A stretch of DNA of 64,000 bases from Planctomycetaceae bacterium UBA2671 (GTDB lineage Bacteria > Planctomycetota > Planctomycetia > Planctomycetales > Planctomycetaceae), in assembly GCA_002359185.1 (NCBI GenBank), contig DEML01000116.1:20362-84361 (forward strand), given 5' to 3'. The notes under the pieces are model-generated. The model was not told the DNA's origin. It did not search any database and worked only from the letters and a program-made list of their open reading frames with translations. The translations under genes and the position numbers were made by a program. This document shows, piece by piece, positions 10,783-60,428 of this stretch; the stretch's first letter is position 1; every line of letters starts with the position of its first letter.

Positions 10783-10827
10783 ACTACCTTTCCAAGAAAT
10801 TTATGAATGTTTGGTAAAACTTCGGGA

Positions 10828-11319: not shown

Positions 11320-11505
11320 GTCGATTTCCCAAATGACCAGTCGAATAATTGAAATGTTGATTTTCGGCAACATCTCAAAATTAGTTCACAAAATGCATCA
11401 ATTTGAAAATTAAGGGAAATACCTTACGTGTTGTTACAAATGCTGGAACAATGGGACGTTTGTAGCAATTATGCTTTTCATTCCGGTTGCGAATTGAATC
11501 CAATG
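11100..11505. repeat. Inverted-repeat copy A: cheX 5' coding blocks (11100-11195 and 11300-11319) plus about 185 bp of upstream/promoter region (11320-11505)
   Basis: The reverse complement aligns by eye at roughly 85% identity with 13889..14180. Shared strings include gtaaggtatttcccttaatt, gttgccgaaaatcaacatttcaattattcgactg and catttgggaaatcgacatgagc. Confidence 0.75.
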
Positions 11506-18634: not shown

Positions 18635-18866
18635 TCAGTGCACTACATGCGGTGATTATGTCACGCTGAAATGCACTTTGCCTGTGCGAACAGACTACTA
18701 ATCGCTGATTGGGGTCTCTATTACCGCGTCTCCGAGACATACGTTCGTCAGTCAATGTGATCATGGATCGATCAAAGTCTATGTCTGACCAACGCAGGTT
18801 TGCCAGTTCACGATAGCCGTTTCGGTGAATGTGTCGCGGGTGATTGAATGGAAATACAGGGCTCAA
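18609..18866 (-). pseudogene. Internal fragment of a tyrosine recombinase/phage integrase
   Basis: 85-codon ORF with a TTG start, containing YRELANLRWSDIDFDRSMITLTDE (compare the integrase consensus G-x-R-x-s-E-l-x-x-L-r-W-s-D-i-D). There is no N-terminal SAM-like domain and no catalytic C-terminal domain. It overlaps the end of the YbaN-like gene. Confidence 0.55.
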
Positions 18867-18921
18867 ACCATCAAAAAGCCGCTACGGCAATCTGCAAACT
18901 GCAGTAAATAAGAGTGAAGCC
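18813..18921. repeat. Direct-repeat copy 1 (~100 bp), overlapping the 5' part of the integrase fragment
   Basis: Aligns with 61350..61455 in the same orientation. The core is a perfect 23-mer tcaaaccatcaaaaagccgctac (18863..18885 versus 61400..61422). Flanking similarity includes gaatgtgt[c/a]gcgggtgattga. Confidence 0.7.
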
Positions 18922-27227: not shown

Positions 27228-28781
27228 TTAGCGAAGAGACTTCAATTCATGCCGGATAATTAACAATGGGTGAGGACTGTCCCATTGCGGGCTGTTGATC
27301 AGATGAGTTTGCTGATTTTCAGGATGATCCAACTGTAGGGTAGGAAATGCCAGATTTGCGCGAATCGTCTGCAAAGCCATGAGCGATTGACTGTGTTGTT
27401 GAGAGTCAAAAGATTCTGTTTGCAGTTGTGAAAGTGCCAGAAAGTATTGTGTGGCCACATCCCAGCTTTGAATGGACTGCAGATGCTCCTGTTTCAGCAG
27501 ATCTGAGAGTACGTTTTTGCGAAGCTCAACAAGATTCTTCGGCTCTGAAAGATACTGTTGAATTCTCAGATCGAGTTGATCGGAAACCGAAGCAGAAAGT
27601 TCCAGCATCTGGTCTCGATGCTGCGGTTTCATCTGATCGACTTGCGTATTCAGCAATTCCAGTTTGCTCAGGGAATCGATGTCCGTATCCAGTCCAGTGG
27701 ACTCCAGGATGACGCGATCAAACAGTGAGTAAAATTCCGCGCGGGCAATGGAACCTTTTTTGGGGTCAGAAGCTGCTTGTCGCCAATTCGGGGCTGGTGA
27801 CTCTGAACGAGATAAATCATGATGGCATGAGTAACAGGAATACTCTGCAAGCTCGGGCCAAACGGCTTTCGAGTTTTCCAATCGCTGATGCAGAAGCTTC
27901 TGAACATGACTGGAACAAACCAATTGGCCAATCGCCCAGGAATTTAAGGCGTGATCAGCTGCTTGATTGGAGTTGATTCCATCGGATCTCTTTTTATCTC
28001 TCGCGATGTCCCAATGAGCAGCCTGCTGAGCATACAGATCCATATAAGATGTATACTCGAATAACAGCCTGGGGTGTCCGGCTGCAATCAAGTCATGGTT
28101 GACATCCCGACCTGCACTTCCAATATGACAACTCGCACACGTTTCTGCCCGAATGACTGTCGATTTGAGTTGTTTGAACCCCGTCTCATTCTTGCGGGAT
28201 ACATTCCAGAGTGAGGAATTCCAGGCATAGCTGCGGTGTGGTTCCAGCCATTTTACAGCTTGTCCATGACAGGCTTCGCAACTCACACCGTTGGAAACAA
28301 ATTCCAGATTCGTCTCGTTGGATATAGATTCAGAAATTTCATAACCACTCTGAGGAGCAGCGTGGCAATTGAGACAGACGGCTGATTTTTCCGCTGGCGA
28401 CTCCAGCTTTAGCTTTTCGGCGATTCTCTGGGAACGCTCGCTCGTTAATGTGCGGTAGGCTTGTGCGTGGGGATCATGTCGTTGCCAGATGGTATAAGAA
28501 AGCGAAGAAAGTGGAGCAGTTGATTTGAAACTGCCATGGCAATTTGAGGAAGAACAGGAGACAGCCCCTAAAAAGAGCAGGGGACCTTTGCTGAGATTTT
28601 CAGAAACGGATTGTTCGTCTGTTTCACTATTCATACCAGGCAGAGGATGAAAACTTGGTCCAGCGAAATCCTCAGCGATCAAAGTCTGACAAGCGGCGAA
28701 AATACAGGTGTTTAATACAATAAAAAAGAGTTGGTAATAAATCATCCCGACTTCAAGCCTCGGTTGTTGACCCGACTTCAT
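27228..28781 (-). CDS. Pentaheme c-type cytochrome, paralogue 3 (cytochrome c554-like family) with a non-heme helical C-terminal half
   Basis: ORF 27228..28886; the likely start is the ATG at 28781 (MKSGQQPRLEVGMIYYQLFFIVLNTCIFAA, a signal peptide) or at 28745. Heme motifs: CSSSNCH (CX4CH), CLNCH, CEACH, CASCH, CYSCH. The shared HDLIAAGHPRL box is present. Confidence 0.8.
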   Translation of the reverse strand: MKSGQQPRLEVGMIYYQLFFIVLNTCIFAACQTLIAEDFAGPSFHPLPGMNSETDEQSVSENLSKGPLLFLGAVSCSSSNCHGSFKSTAPLSSLSYTIWQRHDPHAQAYRTLTSERSQRIAEKLKLESPAEKSAVCLNCHAAPQSGYEISESISNETNLEFVSNGVSCEACHGQAVKWLEPHRSYAWNSSLWNVSRKNETGFKQLKSTVIRAETCASCHIGSAGRDVNHDLIAAGHPRLLFEYTSYMDLYAQQAAHWDIARDKKRSDGINSNQAADHALNSWAIGQLVCSSHVQKLLHQRLENSKAVWPELAEYSCYSCHHDLSRSESPAPNWRQAASDPKKGSIARAEFYSLFDRVILESTGLDTDIDSLSKLELLNTQVDQMKPQHRDQMLELSASVSDQLDLRIQQYLSEPKNLVELRKNVLSDLLKQEHLQSIQSWDVATQYFLALSQLQTESFDSQQHSQSLMALQTIRANLAFPTLQLDHPENQQTHLINSPQWDSPHPLLIIRHELKSLR

Positions 28782-28997
28782 TCTGAAGGTCTCTGCGCAG
28801 ATCTCTATCACATTCATCGAATTTTGAGTCATGAGCAGTATAGACAATACGGTAACTTGAACAGGTTTGCATGCATACGATTTCAATGACTGTCACAAGT
28901 CATAAGTTGCATGAATCTTCGTCCGTTTAACCAGTTTGCCTGATCGTCATGATTGTTAAATACCTGACTAAATTGCACTCGAACTCAGTTCAGTTGC

Positions 28998-30989
28998 TTA
29001 TTTCTCCTCTGATAATTTTTCACTCAGTGTTTTCAGTTCCTGAAAATTCTCTTTCAGTTCGATCGCTTCATAAGCTGAAATCATTGGAAAGACAGCCGAG
29101 AGATCAAGTTCATAGATTCCGAAATTAACGGAACTGTTATTTCGCGAATTCACGCCTTCAATAGTCAATACTTTTCGCTCGCGGGAACGATTTAAATCCA
29201 ACATGACATGCTCCTGAAAGTTACGAAGACAATTCGAAATTTCACTGGATTGATTGTCGTACCAGCCTCCAAACATGGGGGATTCTTTGACATCGCGGTG
29301 AATAATGCGAGCTGTCATGTCTGAATTCAGGAACATAAACTCGTCATAAGCGACCACATAAGACCAGATTAACTGGCGAACGGAATCGTAATCTCGTTCT
29401 TCTTCAGCCAGTCCGCAAATTGCTGTCATCAATTCCGGTAATTTCTCAACAGAGACCGGATCTCGGGACAATTCCCAGGCTTTATCTTCCAACCATTTTG
29501 CGATGATCCTGGAAGTTGTCATCAATGTCTCGGGATTCCCAAATGGAGCATTATTAAGTGACTCAATTAAAGGTTTAAGCTGGTCATCAAAGTCTGAAGT
29601 CTTGTTTAAGTGCATGCTTGCCAGCCTGGCAGAGGCGAGCGGCCATTCATGAATATTTGGCCGGCCTGGTTTCAGCATTAACTTGCGGGATTGTCTCCAG
29701 GTCCCAGTACGAAGATCGTGATGGCAATTGAAGCAGGCATAATTGGAAAATTCAGGCCAGCTATGAAGCTCAATCGAGGAATCTTCAGCCGTGATCTGAT
29801 GCAGGGGACTGTGAACAGCGGGATCGATGAGATCGGCTGATAATCGCAATTGCTCAGCCATATTCATTAGGCCGCTGACCAACATGATTGTTGTTTGCTC
29901 GGCGACTCTGGATTTGTCGGTGAAGACATTCTCCGTATTGGCTTCGGGAATCACTTTGCTGGCGTAATCAGCTTTCAGTTCTGGAGATTTATCGAAAAAT
30001 CCGTTCCAGTGGGCTGGCTCCTGATTGGAGTAAGTTGCCACTTCCAGATTTGGCAATGGCGGATGCCCGGCTGCATACATCTCGTGAGTAATAATTTTTC
30101 CCTGCCTGACATTTCCAATATGACAGGAAGCACAAATCCGGGCACGGTTCACATAACTGCGAACATCCCATTGCCCCGATTCATATCGTTTTGCAGAATC
30201 GTAATGACGCCAGTTTTCCTCCATCCAGTGCAAATTTCCCCAACCGCGAATGCCATCATTCGCACCTGTTTTTTTATCACCAGCCGGGCCATGGCAACCT
30301 TCGCAACTCACTCCAGCCAGAAGGTTCACACCAAAAGCCTGTTTGAGCGAAGGGGTGTTCTCTGCGGAATTTCCAAGTCCGGCACAAACTGTCACATAAG
30401 TCTGACCAGTCACTTTGCAGTCGTCAGGAAATTCTTTGAGGTAATTTTCAACCGGGATCGAGGAATGGCAAGCCAGGCATCGCAAGTCGTGATGAATTAA
30501 AGATTCACCTTTTTCATCGACGACTCCCAGTAGCCTGGCCATCGACTGGGCCAACCCGCTTTCCAGAGCCACATAAGCCTGGGCATGTTTGTCGAAGGTT
30601 TCCCAGGTGGTCATTTCATTGCCAAGAAACCACCCGTCTGTCGAGGCACGGATGAGATCCTGTCCGATGATCGGATTCTGAGCCGTCGAAGAATCTTCCT
30701 CAATGGACTTCGTGGAAGAGAGTGGTCCACCATGGCATCGTTTGCAGGCTTGCAGTTGTGTCAGCTCATGCCCATTGTAATTGAGAAATTCTCCCTGCTG
30801 ATTTCTCTGTTCGCAAAGTTGATTTACAACAGGATTGATCTCTCCCTGTGCCTCAACCTCGCTGTTGTGAGAGAAAAGAATCATCATCGCAAGCAGGCCT
30901 CCCGATATCAGAATGGAGTATGGCCCGGGAGTCCGCGAATCCAAATTCAATGGTGAATATGACGTATTTGTCATGCTTATCTCTCGCAA
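28998..30989 (-). CDS. Pentaheme c-type cytochrome, paralogue 2
   Basis: 663-aa ORF with an N-terminal signal anchor (YSILISGGLLAMMILF). Heme motifs: CKRCH, CLACH, CEGCH, CASCH, CFNCH. The shared box reads HEMYAAGHPPL. The start is 8 nt downstream of the paralogue 1 stop. Confidence 0.8.
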   Translation of the reverse strand: MREISMTNTSYSPLNLDSRTPGPYSILISGGLLAMMILFSHNSEVEAQGEINPVVNQLCEQRNQQGEFLNYNGHELTQLQACKRCHGGPLSSTKSIEEDSSTAQNPIIGQDLIRASTDGWFLGNEMTTWETFDKHAQAYVALESGLAQSMARLLGVVDEKGESLIHHDLRCLACHSSIPVENYLKEFPDDCKVTGQTYVTVCAGLGNSAENTPSLKQAFGVNLLAGVSCEGCHGPAGDKKTGANDGIRGWGNLHWMEENWRHYDSAKRYESGQWDVRSYVNRARICASCHIGNVRQGKIITHEMYAAGHPPLPNLEVATYSNQEPAHWNGFFDKSPELKADYASKVIPEANTENVFTDKSRVAEQTTIMLVSGLMNMAEQLRLSADLIDPAVHSPLHQITAEDSSIELHSWPEFSNYACFNCHHDLRTGTWRQSRKLMLKPGRPNIHEWPLASARLASMHLNKTSDFDDQLKPLIESLNNAPFGNPETLMTTSRIIAKWLEDKAWELSRDPVSVEKLPELMTAICGLAEEERDYDSVRQLIWSYVVAYDEFMFLNSDMTARIIHRDVKESPMFGGWYDNQSSEISNCLRNFQEHVMLDLNRSRERKVLTIEGVNSRNNSSVNFGIYELDLSAVFPMISAYEAIELKENFQELKTLSEKLSEEK

Positions 30990-30997
30990 TTGGGAAG

Positions 30998-32608
30998 TCA
31001 GTTCAAGGATGGTTGAGTTTCAAGTTTCGAGTCTGGAGTCACATCAGGCGCTTCGGTAGAGAATAGGGCATCCAGTTTTGACAGGATCGATTCCATCAGA
31101 ATCCCGGTTTCTTCATTGGTAAAGTAGCCAGCCGGGCTATGGAATAAATACCTTCGTTCTGCACCAGACGCATCTGGTAGGGCTTCAAAATCCAGTACGT
31201 GTCGAAGCTCATCCAATTCGGTTTCAATTTCTATTTTAAGAGCCGATTGCAATTCCACCTCTGCCAGTAAGTGAGGAATCAAAAGCGTGAATGAAACTGC
31301 TTTTCTCCAACTCAGACGATTCTGTCTCAAATCCTCCCGGATCGTTATCTGAACCGCATCCAGAAATGTTTTGACCTGAGATATTTCAATCTCGTTGCCG
31401 AATGGCGAAGTCAGATTGTCGCTCTGCTGAATTAACTGCATGGCATTCAGGCAGTTTTTGCACGCCTCCATCTTATCGCCCAGATGGCTCCAGTTATGAA
31501 TTTCAAATCCATTTTCAATGGAGGCCAGATTGTTTTTGAGTTGATTAATCTCGCCTGAAATTTCTTGATTGCCGTTCTGAACGATAAAGAAGCTATCCAA
31601 CATGGCAGGGAAAAAATCCTGATAAGGATTTCCCCATTTGGAGCCTTCATGCTGATTGACTTTACTGCGTAAGTCGCGAGAATCCAGTTCGCGATGACAC
31701 GCAAAGCAACTCATCTCTGAAAATTCCATCTGCACGTATCCAGCCGAGTCTGGCTGGAGCCGATATTCGAGCAATTCAAGACTGGCCTGCATGCCATACC
31801 ATTGGCCAATAATCCAATTGGACAGACTCGGGTGATCCTCTTCGTGCTCGTGATTCCAGTGCGGTGAAATGGCATTGGAAAACGCCGAGAAATCAAAATC
31901 GAGTCGAGGATGTCCCGCTCCAATCAAATCGTGATCCACCTCCCGAGAAACAATTCCCAGATCTTCATCACCGGAAGATCCAATATGACAGCTGACACAC
32001 AACTGAACTCTCTGGTCAGGATGCGCAAGCGGAGTCATCCCCGCGCCGCGCATCCTCTTTTCAGCTTTCTCTTCCTGACTGACCGCCCATGTCGGATGAG
32101 CTTGAATCCATTCCCCTTCGACTCCATGACACATCATACATTCCGTATTCTGCGGAATAACTGACAATTCGATTTGCGTCTCAGTCTGTCCAGCAGGAAT
32201 GAGCTGAGGGGCATGACAACTTAAACAGCTCGTCTCGCGAATCGCCTGACGATCATTCTCGTCATAGAGCTTGCTCATAATCTGTTTTGCTAAAGGAGAT
32301 TCCAGGCTGACTAATGCTTCCGTATGAGGATCGACCGCATGCCAGATCACCGCTTCGTTTCGGCTACAACCGACGACCTGGGAATCCGTATTTCGTGGCA
32401 ATTCCTGCCCATGACAACCCGTCGACGAGCACGAACTCATGGCTGAGAAGCGGTAAAAATCTGAAAGCTCCTCACTCTGTGGAATCGCTTCTGCTTTTGA
32501 CACAACCGAGGCGTGAACCTGCTGGGTTTGCTGAGGATCTGCAGTTTTAATGCGATCACATCCCGAGAACGCAAGCAGCAGCGCAAGCTGAAAACAACGA
32601 GTCACCAT
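30998..32608 (-). CDS. Pentaheme c-type cytochrome, paralogue 1 (probable lipoprotein)
   Basis: ORF 30998..32683; the ATG at 32608 gives MVTRCFQLALLLAFSGC, a lipobox-like signal. Heme motifs: CSSTGCH (CX4CH), CLSCH, CMMCH, CVSCH, CFACH. The shared box reads HDLIGAGHPRL. Confidence 0.8.
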   Translation of the reverse strand: MVTRCFQLALLLAFSGCDRIKTADPQQTQQVHASVVSKAEAIPQSEELSDFYRFSAMSSCSSTGCHGQELPRNTDSQVVGCSRNEAVIWHAVDPHTEALVSLESPLAKQIMSKLYDENDRQAIRETSCLSCHAPQLIPAGQTETQIELSVIPQNTECMMCHGVEGEWIQAHPTWAVSQEEKAEKRMRGAGMTPLAHPDQRVQLCVSCHIGSSGDEDLGIVSREVDHDLIGAGHPRLDFDFSAFSNAISPHWNHEHEEDHPSLSNWIIGQWYGMQASLELLEYRLQPDSAGYVQMEFSEMSCFACHRELDSRDLRSKVNQHEGSKWGNPYQDFFPAMLDSFFIVQNGNQEISGEINQLKNNLASIENGFEIHNWSHLGDKMEACKNCLNAMQLIQQSDNLTSPFGNEIEISQVKTFLDAVQITIREDLRQNRLSWRKAVSFTLLIPHLLAEVELQSALKIEIETELDELRHVLDFEALPDASGAERRYLFHSPAGYFTNEETGILMESILSKLDALFSTEAPDVTPDSKLETQPSLN

Positions 32609-32863
32609 CCAGGGCAACAGTATTCGATTCTGGTAGTGAGAATTCACGTCATTCATAACCAGTTCGATGTCTTTACAATACAAAGCAGGGCATGGTTGTA
32701 GAAAAAGTAACTTTGTGAGAAGGAGAACTTGCTGTCACGTTGTCATGTGTTCAGAAAGTAGATCAAAGCATAAATGAGCCGACCTGAGAATGCCAATTAA
32801 AAGCCTGGTAATTCTCTACGATTCAGACGGAATTCGTATTAGTGAGAATACCGGATTTGGAAA

Positions 32864-34783
32864 TCAGTCGGTCAGGAATTCTGGAATCAGTCCCAGAGAC
32901 TCCAATTGTTGCTGCAGCTTCTTCGAGTGCTGAAACATTTGCATTCGGGATTGCCGATGCTCCCGTTCGAGTATATGTTGAGCCGATCGAAACCAGTGGA
33001 TAGCTCGTGATGGAACTTCAGAGCCTTTGAGCGATTGAGAATAATTCTGAGCGTTCTTTTGAAATTCGTTCGGCAACTGTTCGAAGAGTTCATCTTCAAA
33101 CGAGAGGAGGAATTGATAGGAACCAGGTTCTCCCTGACGAGCTGTTCGTCCAATCAACTGCCGGTCAATTCGATTGGAAAAATGCATTTCGCTCAGAATC
33201 ACATGCAATCCCCCTCTGCTCAATACTTCATAATCAACTCGAATATCAGTCCCTCGACCAGCCATGTTGGTGGCAATTGTGACCTGTCCGGGTTGCCCCG
33301 CTTGGGAAATAATTTCTGCTTCCAGTTCATGATTAGCGGCATTGAGCAATTCAAATTCAATACCGGCAGCCTCAAGAACTGCCGCCAGTTCTAACGAACT
33401 TTGTACCGTGGGAGATCCAATCAGGACTGCCCGTTTTTGCTCGACTAACTCCTGAACCACTTTTTGAATCTCGTTGTACTTTTCCGCTCGGGTTTTGAAG
33501 AGCTTCGTTTTAACTTCTTTTCGCTTCGAGGAAAGCCGAGTCGCAATTTGTACGGTTTCCAGTTTGTAATACTGTTCAAATTCTTTTGCGATGGAAGTCG
33601 CAGTTCCTGTCATTCCGCACAGGAATCGATATTTTTGGGCAAGCAGCTGAACGGTCGTTTGAGCCGTGGTGCAGGTTTGTTCGATTTCAGTAAATTCTTC
33701 TTTCATTTCAATGGCCAGTTGCAAACCGCGCTGCCACTTTCGTCCAGGCATCACACGTCCGGTGTTTTGATCAATAATTTCTATCTGATCATTCACAATC
33801 AGATAGTCACGGTCTTTTCGAAAAAAGTGAGATGTCGTCAGGCTGTTTTCCATCGCCACCTGCAGGTCATGCCAGCGATATCCTCCCATCTCTTCAGATT
33901 TCTGCTCTAAGACAAGTTTACTTCGACCCTCCGGCTTGAGTTGGACACGTCTCGACTGAGGATCCAGCGTGTAATCTTTCTCAGGCTCAAATGCAGGCAG
34001 CGTTTCCCGGCACCAGCGATATCTCTCCACTTCTCCTGCATCTGCGGGAATTGCTTCAGCAATGATCAATGGCATGCGGGCCTGATCAATCAAAACACTG
34101 TCCGCCTCATCAATGATCGCAGCGTTCATTTCCGCACGATGCACAGGTCGATCGACAGCTTCCAAATAAATTTCGTCTGATGAGGTTCGGTCAGGCTCTG
34201 ATTCAATTAAGAGGCGATCTTTCAAGTAATCGAAGCCGATCTCCTTTTCTGTGGCGTAGGTCACGTCTCGTGAATAGGCAACTCGACGTGCATCTCGATT
34301 GTCTTGATTTCTGATCACACCGACAGAAATTCCAAGGAGATTAAATATCGGCATAGAAAACTGCTGGTCGCGGACCGCCAGATATTCATTGGCTGTGATC
34401 ACATGACAGCCCCGACCTGAAAGAGCATGCACGTAGGCGGGTAATAAAGCCGTCAGAGTCTTACCTTCTCCCGTCTGCATTTCTATGATGTAACCATCCA
34501 GAAGCGCACGACCAGCCAGCAGTTGATTGAAATAATGTTCCTGCTGATGAACACGTCGGGCGGCTTCGCGCATGATCGCGAATGCCTGCACAACCTCTCT
34601 CGAACCCGCACGCTGTTCAGCAAAAATTTGCTTCAGTTTCAGAGATTCCGATTTCAATTCGGAATCGCTTAGCCCACGCAGTTTTTGAGCAGATCTCAAG
34701 ATCTCGTTGCATTCTTTAAGCCATGTCAACTGCCGTGGAATTCTATGCGGAGAATTATTCAGAATATTCCGGACAATAAACAT
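32864..34783 (-). CDS. Truncated SecA paralogue (NBD1-PPXD-NBD2 motor only, 639 aa)
   Basis: Walker A: MQTGEGKTLTALLPAYVHAL. SecA strings: VITANEYLAVRD, DVTYATEKEIGFDYLKDRL, IIDEADSVLIDQARMPLII, CGMTGTATS, TNMAGRGTDI, IGRTARQGEPGSYQFLLSFEDELF. The protein ends about 70 aa after NBD2, with no long helical scaffold, wing or C-terminal tail. It starts 19 nt after the upstream stop. Confidence 0.85.
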   Translation of the reverse strand: MFIVRNILNNSPHRIPRQLTWLKECNEILRSAQKLRGLSDSELKSESLKLKQIFAEQRAGSREVVQAFAIMREAARRVHQQEHYFNQLLAGRALLDGYIIEMQTGEGKTLTALLPAYVHALSGRGCHVITANEYLAVRDQQFSMPIFNLLGISVGVIRNQDNRDARRVAYSRDVTYATEKEIGFDYLKDRLLIESEPDRTSSDEIYLEAVDRPVHRAEMNAAIIDEADSVLIDQARMPLIIAEAIPADAGEVERYRWCRETLPAFEPEKDYTLDPQSRRVQLKPEGRSKLVLEQKSEEMGGYRWHDLQVAMENSLTTSHFFRKDRDYLIVNDQIEIIDQNTGRVMPGRKWQRGLQLAIEMKEEFTEIEQTCTTAQTTVQLLAQKYRFLCGMTGTATSIAKEFEQYYKLETVQIATRLSSKRKEVKTKLFKTRAEKYNEIQKVVQELVEQKRAVLIGSPTVQSSLELAAVLEAAGIEFELLNAANHELEAEIISQAGQPGQVTIATNMAGRGTDIRVDYEVLSRGGLHVILSEMHFSNRIDRQLIGRTARQGEPGSYQFLLSFEDELFEQLPNEFQKNAQNYSQSLKGSEVPSRAIHWFRSAQHILEREHRQSRMQMFQHSKKLQQQLESLGLIPEFLTD

Positions 34784-34802
34784 GCAGTCTTCTCGAATAA
34801 TT

Positions 34803-37025
34803 TCAGGATCGACGGAGGTAGTTTTTCCAGAGATAGTTGCCGATACGCTCGGCGATTGTGCGTGAAGGATGCTCGATCAGAGCCTGTCCCTGCATTCCAG
34901 CGATCAACGGAAGTTGCTGACGGCTCCAGGAGACTCGAATAACGTATCGTGACAGTTCTGTGTCTGAAGCCGCATTGAATTGCGTTTCTCTGCTCAGCAG
35001 ATTTCTCAGTTCCCAATCCTCACTGGGTTCGTTTTTGAAGGCATGATCAGAAAGAAAACGAACCGTTCCTGAAATGGGAACATCGGGAAATCCCTGCAAC
35101 CGCAGGCTAATTAGCTGCCCGACTCTCAAGGCTTTCTTCTCCTCTTCAGTGACCAGAATAGTAGCGGTGAATTCAGAATCGTCATAGATATTGAGCAGCG
35201 GAGTTTGACGCGCGATATAGGGATGAGATTCTGCTGTGTTGTCAATGTCTCCATCCCAGGATTTGCTTTCGATCCTTTCCTCAAGCGTTTCCGCAATCGG
35301 AATTTCAACGGCGGGGATGACGATCCCGGAGATCGGAGCCAGAACCGTCAGCTTTTCAGCCTCTGCCTCCAGGAGTTTCATTCGTTTACGATGATAATTT
35401 TCCAGTTCACGCGATTGAGCCACTGACTGAGGTTTGGAGAGATGCTCATTGAGAGCTGTGATGACTTTCTGTTTTTCAAGATCTGCTCGCAGGCGAATGC
35501 TTTTTCGCTCATACTGAGAATCCTGTAGCGTTAGAACTTTCTGACCGGCTATGACCGAATGATCTCCATTGCGATCTTCCACTTCAGACAGTACTCCCCC
35601 GGCATCGGCTATCAGAGAGCTTGAAAGTTTGGGAGAGGCGACCAGAGGAGCAGTTGTTCGGTTGGAGAACGGGACCGCGAAAATGAAATAGCCTGACGCT
35701 CCGACGAGCAGGAGCGGAAAAATGAGCCGGGCAGGTCGCATGGAAACATCCTTGTGTTCTTTCATCAGTTGATAAAACGATGTCAGTCCCTGAATAAGCA
35801 TCGTCATCAATCCCTGAACTAATACCACTCGAGAGATCCATCCCAGTTGATACGGTTTTAAGAGATGATACAAAAACTCTGAAATCACAATCAGAATCAG
35901 CATTGTGTAAACAATCGAACAAACGTGGTAGAGCAGATACCAGATCTGTTTCCGTTGCGGTAATTGCGTGTTTCTTCTGAGTGATTTACCAGAAACGATT
36001 TCTGCTATCTGATAGTGAAATAGCTTCTTCGATTTTTCCCGGAGATTGGTCACTCCCAGAAGGTCGGAAAAGACGTAATAGCCATCAAATTTCAGTAATG
36101 GATTCAAATTCACAAGCACAGTACTGCACAATGTCACTCCGATCACATGCGCCATAAAGTCATGGGTAAACCCTGGACCTGTCAGCAACCAGAGCCCAAC
36201 GGCTAAACTTCCCAGAGCGATTTCCGCGTAAATGCCTGCAAGTGAAACTTGAATTCTCGACCAGCGACTCGGCATGCACCACGCATCGGAGACATTACAG
36301 TACAGGCAGGGACTGAAGACAATCATCGCCACGCCAATTTCATGGACTTCGCCACCCAGTAACCGACATCGCAATCCGTGCGACAATTCATGAATTGCTT
36401 TCGTCAACGCCAGCGCCAGCCAGAAACAATAAATCCCCTGACCAGTCGGATGAAAAGCGGTGAATGAAAATTCTGCCCAGAAACGATCCCATTCCCCGAC
36501 TAATGCACCGCACGCAATCAACGCACAACAGGAAAAAAACAGGACCGAGGCTCGTGAGTAGAACCATGCGAAGAAGGGCATCAGCCAATTCAGGAGTGCC
36601 GTGGGATCCCATCCCGGAAGTCGAAAATAGAGGGGATTGATCCCGCTTCTTTTTTTTGCATGGTTTTCTGTATTAAGAGGACTGAGTTCAGGGTCAACCA
36701 CAAGTGCACGGGCCAGTTGTTTCTCGATCAATTCTTTGATCAGTCCCAGCACGTCATGGGTTGTCCAGTGCCGCTCCAGAAAATTCTCGTTCATTTTTTG
36801 AACAAGTCCTGCTAACGGAATTTCCCCGTCCAGTTTCTGCAGCAAAAAATAGAGTTCGGGACGCAACTGATAATACGCCCGGCTCACTGGATCTTTGACA
36901 ATCCAAGTGATGATGTATCCCTCGGATCGTTCAGTGAATTGAAGATCCTTGCGGGCAATTACACGCAAGGCTTTTCCCCGCTTGGCAGTATCTTGAAGCA
37001 TTTTAGGAGGATTATCACGATCCAT
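34803..37025 (-). CDS. Three-part fusion: PqqD/RRE-like N-terminal domain - site-2-protease (M50) membrane domain - HlyD-type periplasmic adaptor
   Basis: 740-aa ORF. M50 motifs: HELSHGLRCRLLGGEVHE and NLNPLLKFDGYY within multiple TM helices. The C-terminal coiled-coil plus barrel-sandwich (KLTVLAPISGIVIPA...) is typical of HlyD adaptors. The N-terminal YYQLRPELYFLLQKLDGEIPLAGLVQKM...VLGLIKELIEKQL resembles PqqD-like peptide-binding domains, but that match is a weak pattern only. Confidence 0.75.
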   Translation of the reverse strand: MDRDNPPKMLQDTAKRGKALRVIARKDLQFTERSEGYIITWIVKDPVSRAYYQLRPELYFLLQKLDGEIPLAGLVQKMNENFLERHWTTHDVLGLIKELIEKQLARALVVDPELSPLNTENHAKKRSGINPLYFRLPGWDPTALLNWLMPFFAWFYSRASVLFFSCCALIACGALVGEWDRFWAEFSFTAFHPTGQGIYCFWLALALTKAIHELSHGLRCRLLGGEVHEIGVAMIVFSPCLYCNVSDAWCMPSRWSRIQVSLAGIYAEIALGSLAVGLWLLTGPGFTHDFMAHVIGVTLCSTVLVNLNPLLKFDGYYVFSDLLGVTNLREKSKKLFHYQIAEIVSGKSLRRNTQLPQRKQIWYLLYHVCSIVYTMLILIVISEFLYHLLKPYQLGWISRVVLVQGLMTMLIQGLTSFYQLMKEHKDVSMRPARLIFPLLLVGASGYFIFAVPFSNRTTAPLVASPKLSSSLIADAGGVLSEVEDRNGDHSVIAGQKVLTLQDSQYERKSIRLRADLEKQKVITALNEHLSKPQSVAQSRELENYHRKRMKLLEAEAEKLTVLAPISGIVIPAVEIPIAETLEERIESKSWDGDIDNTAESHPYIARQTPLLNIYDDSEFTATILVTEEEKKALRVGQLISLRLQGFPDVPISGTVRFLSDHAFKNEPSEDWELRNLLSRETQFNAASDTELSRYVIRVSWSRQQLPLIAGMQGQALIEHPSRTIAERIGNYLWKNYLRRS

Positions 37026-37266: not shown

Positions 37267-37689
37267 TTAATGCCCTTGCCCGAAATGCAGGTTTTCGCCC
37301 CGCATGTGCGAATTTTTGAAGGGGTGATTCTTATGATCCGGCTCATATAACCCGCGACCATCCTGATATCTGTAGCCATGCGACCAGTTTAGTACGACTC
37401 GGGAATACCAGGGCACATAGTCGACCCCAAAGGTCCCTTCATGTTCATATCGCGGTTGACCATGCTTGGATGGGGTCCCCCCCCCAACATAGTAGCAGCC
37501 GTAAGAGTCGTCATATCCACATGTTGCGCGACCACGCACATAATTGGCATTTCCTGCTTCCCGCATCGCAACGGGATCTTTGGCTGGATATTTCATCCAC
37601 CAGTCTTTAGCCGTCGCAGGTTCTGAGGCGAACAAAACAGGCATCAGGCATGCGAATGCAAAAATGTGTAATCTCTTCTGAGAACGCAT
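37267..37689 (-). CDS. Small secreted protein (140 aa, rich in Gly/Tyr/His/Trp) of unknown function
   Basis: Signal peptide MRSQKRLHIFAFACLMPVLFASEPATA. No recognisable domain. Contains the G9 tract listed separately. Confidence 0.6.
   Translation of the reverse strand: MRSQKRLHIFAFACLMPVLFASEPATAKDWWMKYPAKDPVAMREAGNANYVRGRATCGYDDSYGCYYVGGGTPSKHGQPRYEHEGTFGVDYVPWYSRVVLNWSHGYRYQDGRGLYEPDHKNHPFKNSHMRGENLHFGQGH
37477..37485 (-). repeat. Homopolymeric G9 tract (C9 on the + strand) inside the small secreted-protein CDS
   Basis: Counted directly in ...tggggt ccccccccc aacat.... On the coding strand this reads GTT GGG GGG GGG ACC, encoding V-G-G-G-T. Confidence 0.9.
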
Positions 37690-38022: not shown

Positions 38023-41000
38023 TCAACCAAAAGGATTTCGCAGGAATTTTTGATAAGGAAGTCGCACGCCATCGACAAAAACCTGATCAGCTCTTGGGAT
38101 GTTCACACCATCTGGTAAAAACTCGGTCGCTCCCAGATAGGTCACTACATCATCCTGATCGACCCCGTCTCCACTGACCCCAAATCCTCCGACAATTTGG
38201 TTATTTATATAGAGAGGCGTGCTTCCCGGAAAGAAAACGACTCCATTCTGATTAGCCCTCGTGCTGGCACCGACAGCGGGCATCACACCTGCGTCTCCGG
38301 GATCCCGGAAATTGGTCTGAGGATTGAAGGCATCGTAACCCAACACACTGGTAAATGTAGAAGCCGCCGCAGGGGCTCCAATATTCTCGCCCGTTGTAGG
38401 ATCAATCGAGGGATTATTCAATATCGAGAAGGGCGCAGCTGGTGTCCCATCGACTCCATCGGGAAAGCGGGGTTCAGAAAGATATCGGAATGTACGATTT
38501 GTAAATGCGGTCGCCGGATCGATGGGCTCGGGACTTGTATTGTTCGGATCGAATGGTGTGTCTTTATCGATAGGCAGGACATCGTTAGGATCTGAATAGT
38601 AGGCCACATTTCGAGCCTTCGCGACTGCGACATCGATCGAAAACGTGGTCGCATCCTGCATGCGGTACAGTCCCAGAACTTCACCGTTTGTATCAGTCAC
38701 TGCAAAAACCATTCGCGTTCTGGCTCCGGGAGATTGATCCGGAGCTTCGAGCCGAACAGCGGCTCGCGTCACCTCGGCTGCTTCAATTGCATCTTCGATA
38801 ATCTGCTGGACAACCGCAGCAGTCAAAGCGGGATCAGTCGCAGAGGCATGGGGAGTGACCAGATAGCCTTCCGGGACATTCAATCCATTGCGATACAATT
38901 GCGGATCAGCCGTAAAGTTTCCTAAATTCATCGGGTCTTCGATATCAATCCCGGTATCAAAGACGCCATTGTTATTCAAATCACCTGTATCTGAAACAAT
39001 CTGATCGGCTCCGCTTGAAACTCCCGGAGGCGTATTCAATGCCAGTTCAACTGTTTCCATAATTCCAACACAGCCTGCTGTTGGTCCCAGAGCAGCAAGT
39101 TGAATACCTACCAGATCCAGACGTCCAAATGGCAAATCGATATCGCTGACAGGATTACCGGCAAATGCTGTTTTTGCCAGAGGTTCATGTGCAAACTCAG
39201 CTGCCTGAGTGCTTCCCCCAGCGACTGCCAGAGCAATCAACTCAGCCTCGAGAACTTTCGGGGCATTGGTTCGCTCTTCAGTGGTTTGTCCTACTCCAGG
39301 AACAAAACCCTGTTCAAAACTGGCATAACCATCCGGTCCAGGGAAGAACACGCCGACACCACCAATTAACGTATCGCCAATTCCATCCAGATCAGTATCT
39401 CGAAACAGGGGAATTCCCCCAGGCAAAGTGGCGATCCCACGAGACTGAGCCCCCGGATTGATTCCGGAGACAAATCCATACGCCTCTGGAGCAGCCAGTT
39501 CCTGACCAGCAGGGACAAATGCGGGATCGATATTAAACCGACCACGTAATGTCACATCGTCTGCAGTTCCTTTAATGCCGTCATCGCCGGGATGAATGAT
39601 GCTATCACGGTTAGTATGTTCGATTGCAAACAGATCGACCTGCGGAGTGTTCGGAATATCTGGTGGGAAATGTCCTCCCAAACCGATCGGAGCAATAAAA
39701 CCTGGACCACGGACGGTCGAATTGGGATCAATATCGTTGGGGTTGGAGTTGACTTCACGTTCCGTCACAGTCGACTGACTGATGAATCGAACAAGACGCG
39801 AAGTTAAGGGAGCGAATGTTCCTCCGTCGCCATTGTTGGGATCACCATTGGAAAACAGAGCCGCGGTTCGGGCTTTGGCCACCGCCCCATCAATCGCAAA
39901 TGCCAACCCCTGAGGATCACCCGCAAAATTGTCCAGGACTTCCTGTTCTGCTCGAACCCCTAGGATATTTCCATTGCGATCCACAATGGCGATAATCGCA
40001 TCATTACTCGCGGTCACCTCAGAACCATAATTCAGCAGACTTGCGACTTCAGCAGGAGTTAATTGCTCTGGCGTTGCAACCATCGCATGCAGGACAAACG
40101 CATTGGCACCATTGCCGTTTTGCGAGTCCATGGGCATGAAGATCGCGTTGTTGAGTGATTGTGAAATTGATTCGAGATTATGCTCATTTTCATAACTTCG
40201 ACTCATCAACTGGGCTGGATCACTTTGAAAGATATCTTCCAGACCTGACACATGCCCGGCTTCATGGGCGATGACCGTGAAAAAGTCGTAGCTGTTATTG
40301 ACATTGCCGTTGTTGTAATTATTTTCCCAGTTCTCAGCTTGATCCAGCCAGATCATCCCGACAACTTTGGGATGCTCATTTTGCTCGGAGGTTTGAACCT
40401 GACTCAACCCGAGTGTGCCGTCGCGCTGGCTGGTATGACCGAAAGCTGCCAGATCTCCAACACCAATGTTTACGATCTCACTCAAATCCGCCTCAGTGTC
40501 CTGAATGAATTCGATTTTCCCGCCACTGGCTTCGCTCCATCCCTGTAACGCTTGGACAGCTAAAGCCTGCTGTTCTACGGAAATCGTATTCGAATACCCT
40601 TCGGCATCCCGGAAATCATATTTAATGGTGACCGTTTCATATTGATCAATAAACCAGTCTGCAGACTCCGAACCGGGGCTGTTTTCCTGAGAGATCACTG
40701 GCAATGAAGCAGGATCAGTTGGTCTGGTCAACGAATCCAGATCGATGTCCGCAGAATTCGGAATCAATTGGGGATCTGTTTCGAAAGTCAAATCCGTACC
40801 GGTATCGAATGTGATCGAGTTTGCTGCAGCATTTCCAGAGGATTTAATCCGTGGTGTATTGAATGGAGTTGATTCGGCTGGATCTCCGGGATCCTCAGTC
40901 TCCCAGGCAGTCGGCAGAATTGAACCTGATTCAGAGGAATCTGCACCAGATCGTAAAGGTGTCTGATTCGTTGCCTCAACGGTTTCTTCAGAAGAATTTC

Positions 41001-41259
41001 GATCCTGCCTTGGCTGGCTCTCATTGTTTGATAATGGAGACAATTCATTGGTGAGATGAGGTGCACTGGCGATGTGAGGAGTAGCCGGGTTTGTATCAGA
41101 AGCGCTTGGCTGGTTCGCGACTGCTCCTGCCAGGGAACTCAATACGAGCCGTTCTTCCAGCATTTCGACCTGAATCTGATCATAAAGTCTCTCCGTTTCC
41201 ACGGGAGTCTTTGCCGCTTGGAAGATCTCGAATAGTCGTTGACCAAACATAACATGCAC
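38023..41259 (-). CDS. Large secreted protein: metzincin-like zinc protease domain followed by two GlcG/HbpS-like (heme-binding/'haem-degrading' fold) modules
   Basis: 1078-aa ORF. N-terminal QVEMLEERLVLSSLAG motif. Zinc site VIAHEAGHVSGLEDIF (HExxHxxGxxD). GlcG-like strings appear twice: AIIAIVDRNGNILGVRAEQ...GAVAKARTAALFS, and MVFAVTDTNGEVLGLYRMQD...VAVAKARNVAYYS...GGFGVSGDGVDQDD. Confidence 0.65.
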   Translation of the reverse strand: MHVMFGQRLFEIFQAAKTPVETERLYDQIQVEMLEERLVLSSLAGAVANQPSASDTNPATPHIASAPHLTNELSPLSNNESQPRQDRNSSEETVEATNQTPLRSGADSSESGSILPTAWETEDPGDPAESTPFNTPRIKSSGNAAANSITFDTGTDLTFETDPQLIPNSADIDLDSLTRPTDPASLPVISQENSPGSESADWFIDQYETVTIKYDFRDAEGYSNTISVEQQALAVQALQGWSEASGGKIEFIQDTEADLSEIVNIGVGDLAAFGHTSQRDGTLGLSQVQTSEQNEHPKVVGMIWLDQAENWENNYNNGNVNNSYDFFTVIAHEAGHVSGLEDIFQSDPAQLMSRSYENEHNLESISQSLNNAIFMPMDSQNGNGANAFVLHAMVATPEQLTPAEVASLLNYGSEVTASNDAIIAIVDRNGNILGVRAEQEVLDNFAGDPQGLAFAIDGAVAKARTAALFSNGDPNNGDGGTFAPLTSRLVRFISQSTVTEREVNSNPNDIDPNSTVRGPGFIAPIGLGGHFPPDIPNTPQVDLFAIEHTNRDSIIHPGDDGIKGTADDVTLRGRFNIDPAFVPAGQELAAPEAYGFVSGINPGAQSRGIATLPGGIPLFRDTDLDGIGDTLIGGVGVFFPGPDGYASFEQGFVPGVGQTTEERTNAPKVLEAELIALAVAGGSTQAAEFAHEPLAKTAFAGNPVSDIDLPFGRLDLVGIQLAALGPTAGCVGIMETVELALNTPPGVSSGADQIVSDTGDLNNNGVFDTGIDIEDPMNLGNFTADPQLYRNGLNVPEGYLVTPHASATDPALTAAVVQQIIEDAIEAAEVTRAAVRLEAPDQSPGARTRMVFAVTDTNGEVLGLYRMQDATTFSIDVAVAKARNVAYYSDPNDVLPIDKDTPFDPNNTSPEPIDPATAFTNRTFRYLSEPRFPDGVDGTPAAPFSILNNPSIDPTTGENIGAPAAASTFTSVLGYDAFNPQTNFRDPGDAGVMPAVGASTRANQNGVVFFPGSTPLYINNQIVGGFGVSGDGVDQDDVVTYLGATEFLPDGVNIPRADQVFVDGVRLPYQKFLRNPFG

Positions 41260-44302: not shown

Positions 44303-46072
44303 ATGACGATCAGTAATCCCTTTCATCACATCGAATTCAAAGACCGGAATGACTTCGAGTTCTCCAGGATCGTCTGGTGCTGCGCGTGTTGTGTGATTCT
44401 TTGCTGCGGAATCGGCTGTGCCAGATTGCCCAAAACGTCAACCACATCTATAGCCTTGGCTAACCCAGATTCAACCGCAGTGGAAGAGTATCCGGCCCTG
44501 ATCGTAAGTGCCGAGATGGATGGCGAAAAACATCGCGAGGCGAATCTGACTCAGCTCAACGTTAGCGAATCGCAACTTCTTGAGGAAAGCACTAACGAAG
44601 AAGTCATCGAATTTGCTGCTTATTCGACCAATTCCGATTTACAAACTTCGGAAGCCTTAACGATTTCCATGGCAATGCAGGTGATGCTTGAGAATAATCC
44701 ACTGGTCAGGCAGGCACAACTTTCTCAGGAAATGCAGCAGACGCTCATCGATCAATCTCTGGCTGAGTTCGATACTACGCTTTCCTCGAACCTCGATATG
44801 AGACAGGTCAACCAACAGGCCAGTTCCGCAATCGATGCTCTGGGGACGGGACAAAATACAATTTCGACGACCAGCCTGGGAACTTCGAATGGACCTGATC
44901 TACTGGCTTTTGGGAAAAAATGGGAAACCGGAACACAAACCCGACTGGCGTATGGCAGCAATTATAATAACAACAATCCTTCCGGGTCCTTTCTTCTGGT
45001 GAACCCGGCTTACTCCTCAAATTTATCTCTGAGTGTCAGCCAACCGCTCTGGCAGGGAAGAAATCAAAATGTCAATGAGGCTCCTATTGCGATCGCCAAA
45101 TTAAATCAGGCGCGGTCAAAGTATGAAACTCGGGAAACGGTCACCGATCTGATTGTCGAACTTCATGCAGCCTACTGGTCGGTCTATCAACTCCAGCAGG
45201 AAGTCACACTCATTGAACAGGAATTATCGGATGCCGAACATTTGCATCACGAAGAAGAAGTACGTCTCAAACTCGGTGAAGGGAGTATGGTGCGTCTGAC
45301 ACGCTCGCTCGATTATGTTCAACAACTAAAAATCGAACTGGCCCAAGTTGAGCAACGAGCGTTCGAGGCTGAACAGAGACTCTTCCTGACCATGGGGATT
45401 GATCAGTCACTGTCTACTATACCTCGTCATCTGATCGCCGAGCCCGTATCCAATCTTATCGCAATAGACGCGGTCAGCAGTCGCGAGCAGGCACTTCAGA
45501 ATCGAAATGAACTCAAAATTGCCCGCCAAAAACTCAAGACCGCGGAACTCCAGAGACTGCAGGCTGAAGACCTGACAAAACCATCAATCAACGTTGTGGG
45601 TCGCGTTGGAGTTTCCGGACTCGATTCGAATGCCTTCGGAGCGATCCAGAATGCCAGTTCCGGAAACTATCACAACTGGATGATGGGCCTGAACTATGAA
45701 CGTAAACTTGGCAAACGAGGCGAACAGGCCCTGCTGAAACGAGCGGAGTTGCAGTTTCAGTCTGCGATGATTGAACTGCGAAAAGCTGAGAACATTATCA
45801 ACTACGATGTCGACCAGAGCCTGGAACAGGTGCGGAAAAGCTATGACATCTATCAGGCCCAACTGACTCGCTCTAACCTCCTCATAGAGCAACTCGATAT
45901 CTACAACAAGCTGTACCACAAAGGGCAAATCACCATTGAACAACTGGTGGAATCGCGTGGTAATCTCCTCTCCGTTCAACGCGACGAATTGCTGGCGCTG
46001 GTCAATTACAATCTATCGATTGTTGTCTATCACCGCAGCCTCGGAAATTTAACGCATCGTTATTCCCTTTGA
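44303..46072 (+). CDS. TolC-family outer-membrane efflux protein
   Basis: 589-aa ORF with a Cys-rich lipoprotein-like signal (VILCCGIGC). It has two OEP-type helical repeats (e.g. LSLSVSQPLWQGRN, the coiled-coil LIEQELSDAEHLHHEEEVRLKLGEGS, and a second repeat NVVGRVGVSG...). Confidence 0.8.
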   Translation: MTISNPFHHIEFKDRNDFEFSRIVWCCACCVILCCGIGCARLPKTSTTSIALANPDSTAVEEYPALIVSAEMDGEKHREANLTQLNVSESQLLEESTNEEVIEFAAYSTNSDLQTSEALTISMAMQVMLENNPLVRQAQLSQEMQQTLIDQSLAEFDTTLSSNLDMRQVNQQASSAIDALGTGQNTISTTSLGTSNGPDLLAFGKKWETGTQTRLAYGSNYNNNNPSGSFLLVNPAYSSNLSLSVSQPLWQGRNQNVNEAPIAIAKLNQARSKYETRETVTDLIVELHAAYWSVYQLQQEVTLIEQELSDAEHLHHEEEVRLKLGEGSMVRLTRSLDYVQQLKIELAQVEQRAFEAEQRLFLTMGIDQSLSTIPRHLIAEPVSNLIAIDAVSSREQALQNRNELKIARQKLKTAELQRLQAEDLTKPSINVVGRVGVSGLDSNAFGAIQNASSGNYHNWMMGLNYERKLGKRGEQALLKRAELQFQSAMIELRKAENIINYDVDQSLEQVRKSYDIYQAQLTRSNLLIEQLDIYNKLYHKGQITIEQLVESRGNLLSVQRDELLALVNYNLSIVVYHRSLGNLTHRYSL

Positions 46073-60210: not shown

Positions 60211-60428
60211 AGATCTTCCCTGATCTCTTATGACTGTTTTTAAACTCCATCAATTGATGCTGGATTCTATGGAATCAAAGCGTATCACACAAGATTTGTT
60301 CAGGAGTGTCGGATTCAGGTTCCATATTGACCTGTTTTCAGGATAGCCCTTAGGATGTTCACGATTGTCATGGAGGTTCTGATCCAAACGATTTCGCCAA
60401 TACTGTATTATCTGGAAGTGTGTATCGC

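Follow-up and report, generated by a model that had tools for sequence, protein, structure and literature searches.

A probable secondary SecA_DEAD module within a planctomycete multiheme-cytochrome cluster, with a candidate cargo

Introduction

The window analyzed here is a 64,000-nucleotide stretch of DNA from Planctomycetaceae bacterium UBA2671 (assembly GCA_002359185.1, contig DEML01000116.1, positions 20,362 to 84,361). On its minus strand, between positions 27228 and 37025, five open reading frames (ORFs) lie in series and encode a fusion of an M50 protease with an HlyD-type adaptor (component B), a short SecA-like ATPase and three pentaheme cytochromes. Judged from sequence, the fusion and the short SecA very probably belong to the secondary SecA_DEAD, or type I secretion-like, module of PMC4452313. 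What looks new is the setting. This copy of the module lies inside a conserved multiheme-cytochrome cluster found in several planctomycete lineages, and the cluster offers a candidate cargo. The best overall explanation, held with slightly better than even confidence, is that a divergent copy of a known module sits in a redox cluster and carries out leader-dependent export of a large neighboring protein, here called the M10/HbpS-like protein.

The module was described by Kamneva, Poudel and Ward (PLoS One 2015, PMC4452313). They defined "secondary SecA_DEAD" proteins, which have lost the wing/scaffold domain, and a conserved locus that codes for a SecA_DEAD, a Peptidase_M50/HlyD, an HlyD/biotin-lipoyl and a GAF/HlyD protein, sometimes with an OEP gene and with no ABC transporter. 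In their proposal the SecA_DEAD protein gives the ATPase activity and the M50 protein the membrane component of a type I-like secretion system. The Planctomycetes analyzed in that paper retain a canonical SecA with a rearranged SW domain. Its support beyond genomics is a re-read Methylobacterium extorquens microarray, in which the GAF gene alone was expressed in exponential phase. The word "cytochrome" never occurs in the paper, and the PqqD-like domain of B and the DUF3467 neighbor described below are not reported there. No later functional study of the module was found in the literature. The initial annotation of the window had offered two options, (a) a dedicated export and maturation route for the cytochromes and (b) a type I-like apparatus in which a SecA-type motor replaces the ABC component, and was aware of no description of either; option (b) is the proposal already published in PMC4452313.

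Components of the module in the window

The window holds all parts of the module: B, the short SecA, two further HlyD-type adaptors (A, as a member of the GAF/HlyD family, and c1) and a TolC-family gene (Table 1). Membership is assigned by component-by-component agreement with PMC4452313, namely a SecA without SecA_SW, a B protein with the expected motifs and adaptor fold, and the presence of A, c1 and TolC.

The short SecA is made up of NBD1, the preprotein cross-linking domain, NBD2 and the first part of the scaffold helix. It matches the Pfam families SecA_DEAD (3.8e-86), SecA_PP_bind (3.1e-22) and P-loop_SecA (3.8e-45), and the same scan gave no match to SecA_SW, the wing/scaffold family. 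The protein aligns with residues 24-612 of Bacillus subtilis SecA and then stops, about 60 residues past NBD2; in this alignment the wing domain, the two-helix finger and the C-terminal tail are missing. The truncated SecA paralog named in the initial annotation was thus recovered. An active ATPase is expected, given that its Walker A (GEGKT), DEAD, TNMAGRGTD and GRTARQG sequences all remain intact. Its scores fall below the cutoffs of the NCBIfam models for SecA (best 536 bits against 862) and SecA2 (378-494 bits against 725-1100), and it matches the Clostridioides difficile SecA2 structures at 1e-102. It shares 98% identity with a protein of an uncultured Rubinisphaera and 89% with the Rubinisphaera italica counterpart, and the source organism is accordingly assigned to Rubinisphaera. 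R. italica has two short SecA copies (P0002 and P0065), and carries a second, dispersed set consisting of DUF3467, a short SecA and c1. The next-closest short SecA, P0004, stands alone with no cluster around it.

Component B gives Pfam matches to HlyD_3 (1.3e-5) and Peptidase_M50 (4.2e-5, under the Pfam cutoff). Its best NCBIfam match is daptide_HExxH (4.6e-49, score 167.5, below the cutoff of 300), and YydH/LiaK is also matched (3.9e-8, score 33.3, below the cutoff of 225). The catalytic motifs of the M50 family are present as HELSH at residue 212 and NLNPLLKFDG at residue 306, and both HExxH and NxxPxxxxDG are kept in all 78 B proteins examined. The N-terminal ~110 residues match PqqD in 15 of 20 family members (best 3.2e-5). 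Taken alone, the N-terminus of the window protein matches PqqD weakly (E = 0.2, covering model positions 3-66 of 67), and a profile of B N-termini compared with the PDB gave weak matches to PqqD 3g2b (0.013) and to the lasso-peptide recognition protein TfuB1 (0.18). An AlphaFold model of B (pLDDT 78.7) has three strands and three helices at 29-101, a helical membrane domain at 142-450 with a β-hairpin inside it, and a periplasmic part with a two-helix coiled-coil hairpin at 503-557. The C-terminal ~295 residues match MexA, MacA, AcrA and EmrA with E of about 1e-11. With a PqqD-like N-terminus, a membrane domain carrying the M50 motifs and a C-terminus of adaptor fold, B can be read as a single chain that combines a leader-binding element with an intramembrane metalloprotease and an adaptor for docking to TolC; the domain matches, motifs and fold agree with the M50-protease/HlyD fusion named earlier.

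The remaining parts are more scattered. Component A matches its family over the full length (phmmer 6e-55), has a single transmembrane segment at 376-394 and lacks HExxH. A GAF domain is found in 17 of the 23 family A members; the window protein itself gives no GAF match. Component c1 matches the ~326-aa c1 family, present in 48 loci, at 2e-37 (phmmer) and lies 23 kb away from B. A relative of the window TolC adjoins the cluster in locus L091 (2e-62) and a TolC-like gene does so in L088 (7e-14). TolC-family genes occur near the module in the window and in L026, L049, L052, L056, L077, L080, L088 and L091. The ORFs scanned between 27 and 61 kb gave no match to an ABC, RND or MFS domain, and this absence, together with the TolC gene and the two additional adaptors, stands as first annotated.

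The five-gene series itself was borne out in its positions, gaps and domains by ORF and domain scans. Only 19 nt separate the fusion from the short SecA. From the short SecA stop to cytochrome 1 there are 180 nt if the TTG start is used, or 207 nt if the start is the ATG that agrees with the R. italica annotation. Cytochromes 1 and 2 are 8 nt apart, given the TTG start, and the stop of cytochrome 2 lies 216 nt from the ATG of cytochrome 3 at 28781. Promoter- and terminator-like sites between 26.8 and 42 kb occur in numbers equal to those in shuffled sequence and so provide no operon evidence.

Recurrence of the module in Planctomycetota

For the survey, 37 relatives of the fusion were aligned and one genome per GTDB species was then scanned, which gave 80 loci, all from Planctomycetota. 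These loci were processed by crude ORF calling and clustering, and many of the contigs are short. The recurring cassette consists of a short SecA, A (~680 aa, no HExxH), c1 (~326 aa) and B (~745 aa), usually in the order SecA, A, c1, B. A short SecA lies within 10 kb of B at 17 of the 80 planctomycete M50/HlyD loci, and the rough chance expectation is below 1%. The adjacency, whose recurrence elsewhere the initial annotation had set as a check, is therefore not unique to this genome, and a conserved functional pair of fusion and short SecA is supported.

No ABC transporter was found among the conserved neighbors of the 80 loci, and no conserved large cargo gene is apparent in the general cassettes. 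Cytochromes of the pentaheme family are likewise missing from the 80 other loci, where the only comparable gene is one unrelated four-heme ORF in L045. Because none of their family occurs in the general cassettes, the pentaheme cytochromes are placed outside the module proper.

A small protein of 110-140 aa containing DUF3467 (PF11950) recurs, either immediately before short SecA genes that stand alone or immediately after B; in the general cassettes a 112-aa form often takes the position after B. Examples are L002:9375-9794, L004:9433-9768, L010:12492-12827, L038:12312-12647 and L076:12421-12750, among others. Its N-terminus varies, and a core, YANFCRV..PEEL..DFGLNP, is conserved. The protein might represent a fifth part of the module, perhaps a chaperone; it is absent from the window.

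The redox cluster

The redox cluster occupies 27228-57938 in the window. It was pieced together from homologs of cytochrome 2 and of the upstream M10/HbpS-like protein. Across lineages its members are two to three pentaheme cytochromes, a membrane protein of 331-371 aa, a multiheme or decaheme cytochrome, a NuoE/F-like flavoprotein and a cNMP/4Fe-4S protein, together with an LVIVD protein (~1400 aa, 9-10 heme motifs), a domainless protein of 650-975 aa, the M10/HbpS-like protein (~1100 aa) and a small Sec-signal protein. No description of this cluster was found in the searchable literature. It could form an electron conduit across the envelope, serving extracellular or periplasmic electron transfer.

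In four lineages the module and the cluster are found together. The window and R. italica share the order M10/HbpS, small protein, B, SecA and three cytochromes, with TolC, A and c1 near. On contig SRR23274238_5431 (identities 34% for B and 45% for SecA) the order M10/HbpS, small protein, B, SecA is kept and the three cytochromes lie about 8 kb upstream, beside the LVIVD gene. L088 has TolC and c1 on one strand and, on the other, two pentaheme cytochromes, B and the start of SecA (first 60 codons). In the complete genome of Stratiformator vulcanicus, A, c1, SecA and B stand between the cNMP/FeS gene and two pentaheme cytochromes. The link between module and cytochromes drawn in the initial annotation therefore holds for these four lineages, in four gene orders, but not for the 80 general loci. 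Because four different orders each hold the module within a few kb of cluster genes, the module is probably linked in function to the cluster; placement within 10 kb by chance in a 5-9 Mb genome is roughly estimated at below 1%. When L005 alone was considered, the cytochromes had been set aside as irrelevant neighbors, an idea that was dropped once they were found on the same contig, in L088 and in L094.

Neighbor-joining trees agree in part with this linkage. For SecA, the window protein falls with its counterparts from R. italica and L005. For B, the sequences from these three and from S. vulcanicus make up a clade on long branches, set off from about 75 general copies. The window module is a divergent, long-branch version.

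The three pentaheme paralogs each have five heme-binding motifs, as first annotated. Their PF13435 scores are to be read against a cutoff of 20.8 bits, and none of the three reaches the NCBIfam Cyt554 equivalog. The first heme motif is of the non-standard CX4CH type in cytochrome 1 (CSSTGCH, 32429-32409) and cytochrome 3 (CSSSNCH, 28556-28536), and a motif that likewise has four residues between the cysteines in place of CxxCH occurs in the LVIVD protein (CGTVGCH, 57335-57315). The cytochromes carry N-terminal hydrophobic segments, which in cytochrome 1 fall at residues 21-39. In c-type cytochromes heme is attached in the periplasm by a maturation system, and TolC would not let folded cytochromes of this size, about 60 kDa, through. 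With N-terminal hydrophobic segments, two lipobox-like motifs and periplasmic heme attachment, the cytochromes are poor cargo candidates. They are best explained as normal substrates of the Sec or lipoprotein route, with maturation in the periplasm, and as functional neighbors of the cargo and not the cargo.

Orthologs of cytochrome 2 lie in the redox clusters of L088, L092, L093, L094, L095 and L098, and orthologs of the cNMP/4Fe-4S protein in L088, L092, L093, L094 and L098. The 331-aa membrane protein has a counterpart of the same size and position in L092, L093 and L098. LVIVD cytochrome orthologs (E = 0) are found in L005, L087, L088 and L091; the genes in L095 and L098 are similar in size and position by annotation only. 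Orthologs of the 772-aa protein, about 60% identical, adjoin the LVIVD cytochrome in L005, L087, L088, L091 and L098. L091, L093 and L098 are cut by contig or locus ends.

A candidate cargo

The M10/HbpS-like protein stands upstream of the small protein, B and SecA, an order kept in L001 and L005. Orthologs of the small protein in L001, L005, L087 and L088 always follow the M10/HbpS gene. The large protein has HEAGHVSGLED as read in the sequence, and carries the N-terminal leader QVEMLEERLVLSSLAGA, followed by a variable acidic Ser/Thr-rich linker. All seven orthologs share this arrangement: a basic stretch, then (I/V)E-x-LE-x-R(L/F)-x-L-G/S-S, then the variable acidic Ser/Thr-rich linker. In the window protein no hydrophobic segment near the N-terminus exceeded the threshold. 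By eye the leader resembles the LEDRRLL motif of Planc_extracel.

The protein is preferred as the cargo because it lacks an N-terminal hydrophobic segment and has a conserved leader, and because B has a PqqD-like leader-binding domain. It is the best candidate at hand, a tentative one held at well below even confidence.

There is a hint of related leaders elsewhere. In several general cassettes a Planc_extracel-like motif, LE(D/S/E)R-x-LL, with a basic stretch stands at the N-terminus of large proteins two to four genes from B (L009:3204-5567, L052:46-4839, L057:13552-17562, L059:4488-10874, L075:16793-20995 and L076:13015-16488).

Table 1. Genes of the module and of the redox cluster in the window, with the matches on which each assignment is based
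Feature	Coordinates	Strand	Basis
Component B (740 aa): PqqD-like domain, M50 intramembrane metalloprotease, HlyD-type periplasmic adaptor	34803..37025	-	Pfam, NCBIfam, AlphaFold
Short SecA (secondary SecA_DEAD protein, 639 aa)	32864..34783	-	Pfam, NCBIfam, B. subtilis SecA alignment
Component A (669 aa): cytoplasmic N-terminal domain, one transmembrane helix, HlyD adaptor	58201..60210	-	HlyD_3, Biotin_lipoyl_2, HlyD_D23
Component c1 (302 aa): small HlyD/biotin-lipoyl adaptor	60420..61328	+	HlyD_D23, HlyD_3 at 7e-14
TolC-family outer-membrane factor (589 aa)	44303..46072	+	Pfam OEP 2.1e-28
M10/HbpS-like protein, 1078 aa (likely ATG 41250): snapalysin/matrixin-like metalloprotease, two HbpS-like domains	38023..41259	-	Peptidase_M10 2.2e-9, HbpS-like 8.5e-14
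Small Gly/Tyr/His-rich protein, 140 aa, N-terminus reading as Sec-type signal	37267..37689	-	No significant Pfam family
Pentaheme c554-like cytochrome 1 (561-aa ORF; likely start 32656; lipobox-like LAFSGC)	30998..32683	-	Five heme motifs, PF13435 30 bits
Pentaheme cytochrome 2 (663-aa ORF)	28998..30989	-	Five CxxCH motifs, PF13435 21.1 bits
Pentaheme cytochrome 3 (552-aa ORF; likely start 28781 or later; lipobox-like IFAAC)	27228..28886	-	Five heme motifs, PF13435 43.8 bits
Conserved 772-aa protein, N-terminal hydrophobic segment	41904..44222	+	No Pfam match
Multi-pass membrane protein, 331 aa	46393..47388	+	Four hydrophobic segments; no Pfam match
Decaheme cytochrome, 604 aa	47466..49280	+	Ten CxxCH; Cytochrome_C7, Cytochrom_c3_2, MtrC/MtrF-domain matches
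NuoE/NuoF-like flavoprotein, 578 aa, predicted cytoplasmic	49349..51085	+	Complex1_51K 1.9e-40, 2Fe-2S_thioredx, NADH_4Fe-4S; no transmembrane segment
cNMP-binding multi-4Fe-4S protein, 866 aa, predicted cytoplasmic	51130..53730	+	cNMP_binding 6.4e-25, several Fer4 families
LVIVD-repeat multiheme cytochrome, 1381 aa, 10 heme motifs	53793..57938	-	LVIVD 8.6e-21

Mechanism and alternative explanations

From these components we infer that the module exports an unfolded polypeptide with an N-terminal leader. The cytoplasmic short SecA would bind the unfolded, leader-bearing polypeptide and supply the energy of ATP. The PqqD-like domain of B would bind the leader and the M50 domain would cleave it, and the chain would leave through a conduit of three adaptor proteins and TolC. 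In its fullest form the proposal is a leader-dependent, SecA-powered trans-envelope exporter that secretes the M10/HbpS-like protein as the extracellular part of a multiheme electron-transfer apparatus; in planctomycetes more widely, the N-terminal Planc_extracel motif LE-x-R-x-L-L would be the leader that the PqqD-like domain reads and the M50 domain removes. Stated with all these parts, it is doubtful.

Several points weigh against export of the M10/HbpS-like protein by a cluster-linked module. In L087 and L095 the cluster, or its M10/HbpS core, is present and no module lies within 10 kb of it, and the B protein of L088 groups with the general copies, outside the redox-linked clade. The trees are neighbor-joining trees without bootstrap, and the linked clade is on long branches. 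The four lineages are all Planctomycetaceae-like and the linkage may be partly inherited. As for the leader, the Planc_extracel model PF07595 gave no match to it, canonical LEDRRLL examples themselves reaching only E of about 0.04. The stretch that follows the leader motif, LVLSSLAGAVA, has a mildly hydrophobic character and might act as a weak Sec signal. Leader-like motifs occur in 10 of 984 ORFs near the general cassettes, not a clear enrichment, and a genomic background frequency for comparison is lacking. Beyond the M50 domain nothing evident could serve as a membrane pore, and the secretion role of the module is itself a hypothesis from comparative genomics (PMC4452313).

Two of the alternatives concern the cytochromes and their cluster. 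In option (a) the short SecA would be the motor and the M50 domain the signal or leader protease of a dedicated route for cytochrome export and maturation. Gene positions do speak for this: the cytochromes come immediately after the pair in the window and R. italica and immediately before it, on the same strand, in L088. They are divergently adjacent to the module in S. vulcanicus and share its cluster on SRR23274238_5431, and S2P-family proteases such as RseP can degrade signal peptides. However, the short SecA is without the wing domain and two-helix finger that engage SecY and are needed on SecYEG, and for this reason the option is unlikely. The cytochromes have their own N-terminal hydrophobic segments, two of them with lipobox-like motifs, and their heme needs periplasmic maturation. 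Their distance from SecA (180-207 nt, against 19 nt between B and SecA) also tells against a shared route, as does their absence from the other module loci. In L093 the three cytochromes form one co-directional run with other redox genes and no module is in view, and L087 and L095, with a redox cluster and no module in view, point the same way. These last two loci would instead suit the idea that the closeness of module and cluster is meaningless, a matter of inherited synteny or chance in one clade, to which the location of most short SecA genes elsewhere (L002, L003, L004, L096) and the relatedness of the positive planctomycete lineages could be added. That idea is highly improbable: the four gene orders each keep the module a few kb from cluster genes, the chance estimate is low, and in the B tree the linked copies (window, R. 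italica, L005 and S. vulcanicus) stand together as a separate clade.

Other alternatives concern what the module does. The exporter might carry a different cargo and owe its place in the cluster to co-regulation. That cargo could be the 772-aa protein or the small protein, a small peptide that escaped annotation, or something other than protein, for example a redox shuttle. HlyD/TolC systems handle small molecules in addition to proteins, the closest named relatives of B are RiPP leader peptidases (daptide M50, YydH/LiaK), a PqqD-like domain is typical of peptide recognition, and the general cassettes show no conserved large cargo gene. Yet no RiPP precursor or modifying enzyme is seen in the window, the preprotein cross-linking domain of SecA points to polypeptide substrates, and both the 772-aa protein and the small one start with hydrophobic segments or signals of the Sec type, which leaves a different cargo rather doubtful. 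A device for sensing and regulated proteolysis is very unlikely. It would have the GAF protein sense, the short SecA unfold or extract a substrate and the M50 domain cleave it in the style of a site-2 protease. The M50 family is best known for regulated intramembrane proteolysis, and GAF domains are common among the A proteins. The exponential-phase expression of the GAF gene alone in M. extorquens (PMC4452313) fits such a device as well. Three periplasmic adaptors, one with a coiled-coil hairpin of the MFP type, are hard to explain without a trans-envelope conduit, and TolC-family genes lie near the module in the window and eight other loci.

Other features of the window

The initial annotation had placed the TolC and adaptor genes in a repeat-bracketed block. 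One direct repeat does exist (95 nt, 81% identical, with one copy at 18813-18906, downstream of the DUF454 gene, and the other at 61351-61444, downstream of the c1 gene), but it is weak and the sole basis for such a block; no composition shift or mobility gene accompanies it, base composition being uniform across the window. Inverted repeats at 11115-11497 and 13891-14157 (about 70 and 190 nt, 88-91% identical) lie on either side of an HD-domain gene at 12580-13620, around which the GC content is lower (0.40). Upstream, 2247-11373 holds a chemotaxis-type cluster (a CheA-like hybrid kinase, a CheW-like protein and a PAS-containing methyl-accepting protein) that looks unrelated to the finding.

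Cytochrome 3 of the window is followed by a Ser/Thr protein kinase gene (25419-26837), as it is in R. italica. In the general cassettes L009, L045 and L085, genes for kinases of about 540 aa stand directly after B on the opposite strand, and the likeness may be that of a generic kinase domain. Three 302-aa ORFs (at 1120, 16944 and 60420) were considered as a repeated gene and rejected; they are unrelated to one another, coding for a histidine kinase, an HDOD protein and an HlyD protein. Scans for tRNA genes and Rfam families found nothing. No RiPP precursor, radical-SAM enzyme or other RiPP enzyme was found in the window.

Significance

If true, a secretion machine run by a SecA-type motor in place of an ABC transporter would represent a new class of protein exporter in bacteria. 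The proposal dates from 2015 (PMC4452313) and so far has no known cargo. The present locus makes it testable by providing a specialized copy of the module in a defined cluster, cultured strains (Rubinisphaera italica and Stratiformator vulcanicus), and a candidate cargo with a leader motif. The cluster, for its part, connects a cytoplasmic module resembling NADH dehydrogenase with cytochromes that together amount to about 35 hemes. It could represent electron transfer, extracellular or periplasmic, a subject little studied in this phylum.

Comparison with known systems

The window module has the four proteins of the PMC4452313 module (the GAF/HlyD one as a member of that family with no GAF match of its own), with an OEP gene near, no ABC transporter, and a host from the same phylum. 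It differs in that its parts are split over 28 kb and do not form one cassette, B is directly followed by SecA, and the whole is embedded in a multiheme-cytochrome cluster.

Classical type I systems (HlyB-HlyD-TolC, HasDEF and the serralysin exporters) likewise have periplasmic adaptors and a TolC-family channel. In the window, in contrast, there is no ABC transporter, the ATPase is a soluble one of the SecA type, and three adaptor paralogs take the place of one. The candidate signal is N-terminal and probably cleaved; the type I signal is C-terminal and uncleaved, and no RTX repeats were seen here. M10-family metalloproteases (serralysins) and heme-binding proteins (the HasA hemophore) are classes of classical type I substrates. 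By analogy, the M10/HbpS-like protein, which joins an M10 metalloprotease to a heme-binding-type domain, may be likened to classic type I cargo.

Peptidase-containing ABC transporters and RiPP M50 leader peptidases (YydH/LiaK, daptide MpaP) couple leader recognition, cleavage and export in one membrane protein, as B would. With the RiPP M50 leader peptidases B also shares the M50 catalytic motifs and a PqqD-like recognition element. It differs from them in scoring below the equivalog cutoffs, in having no precursor or tailoring enzymes near, and in its fused adaptor domain, its SecA-type ATPase partner and its candidate substrate, a protein of 1078 aa.

Accessory SecA2 proteins of Gram-positive bacteria and mycobacteria are, as the short SecA would be, second SecA-family ATPases for restricted substrates; the motor and cross-linking domains are conserved between them. 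SecA2 keeps the scaffold and two-helix finger and uses SecYEG or SecY2, whereas the short SecA ends after about 60 scaffold-helix residues; no SecY2 or Asp genes accompany it, and its partners are HlyD-type adaptors. A SecA motor and preprotein-binding domain without wing/scaffold also occur in giant Omnitrophota proteins, for which a role outside the canonical Sec pathway was proposed (bioRxiv 10.1101/2023.11.21.568195). There the SecA_DEAD domains are parts of chains tens of thousands of residues long that include transmembrane regions, whereas here the ATPase is a free-standing protein of 639 aa.

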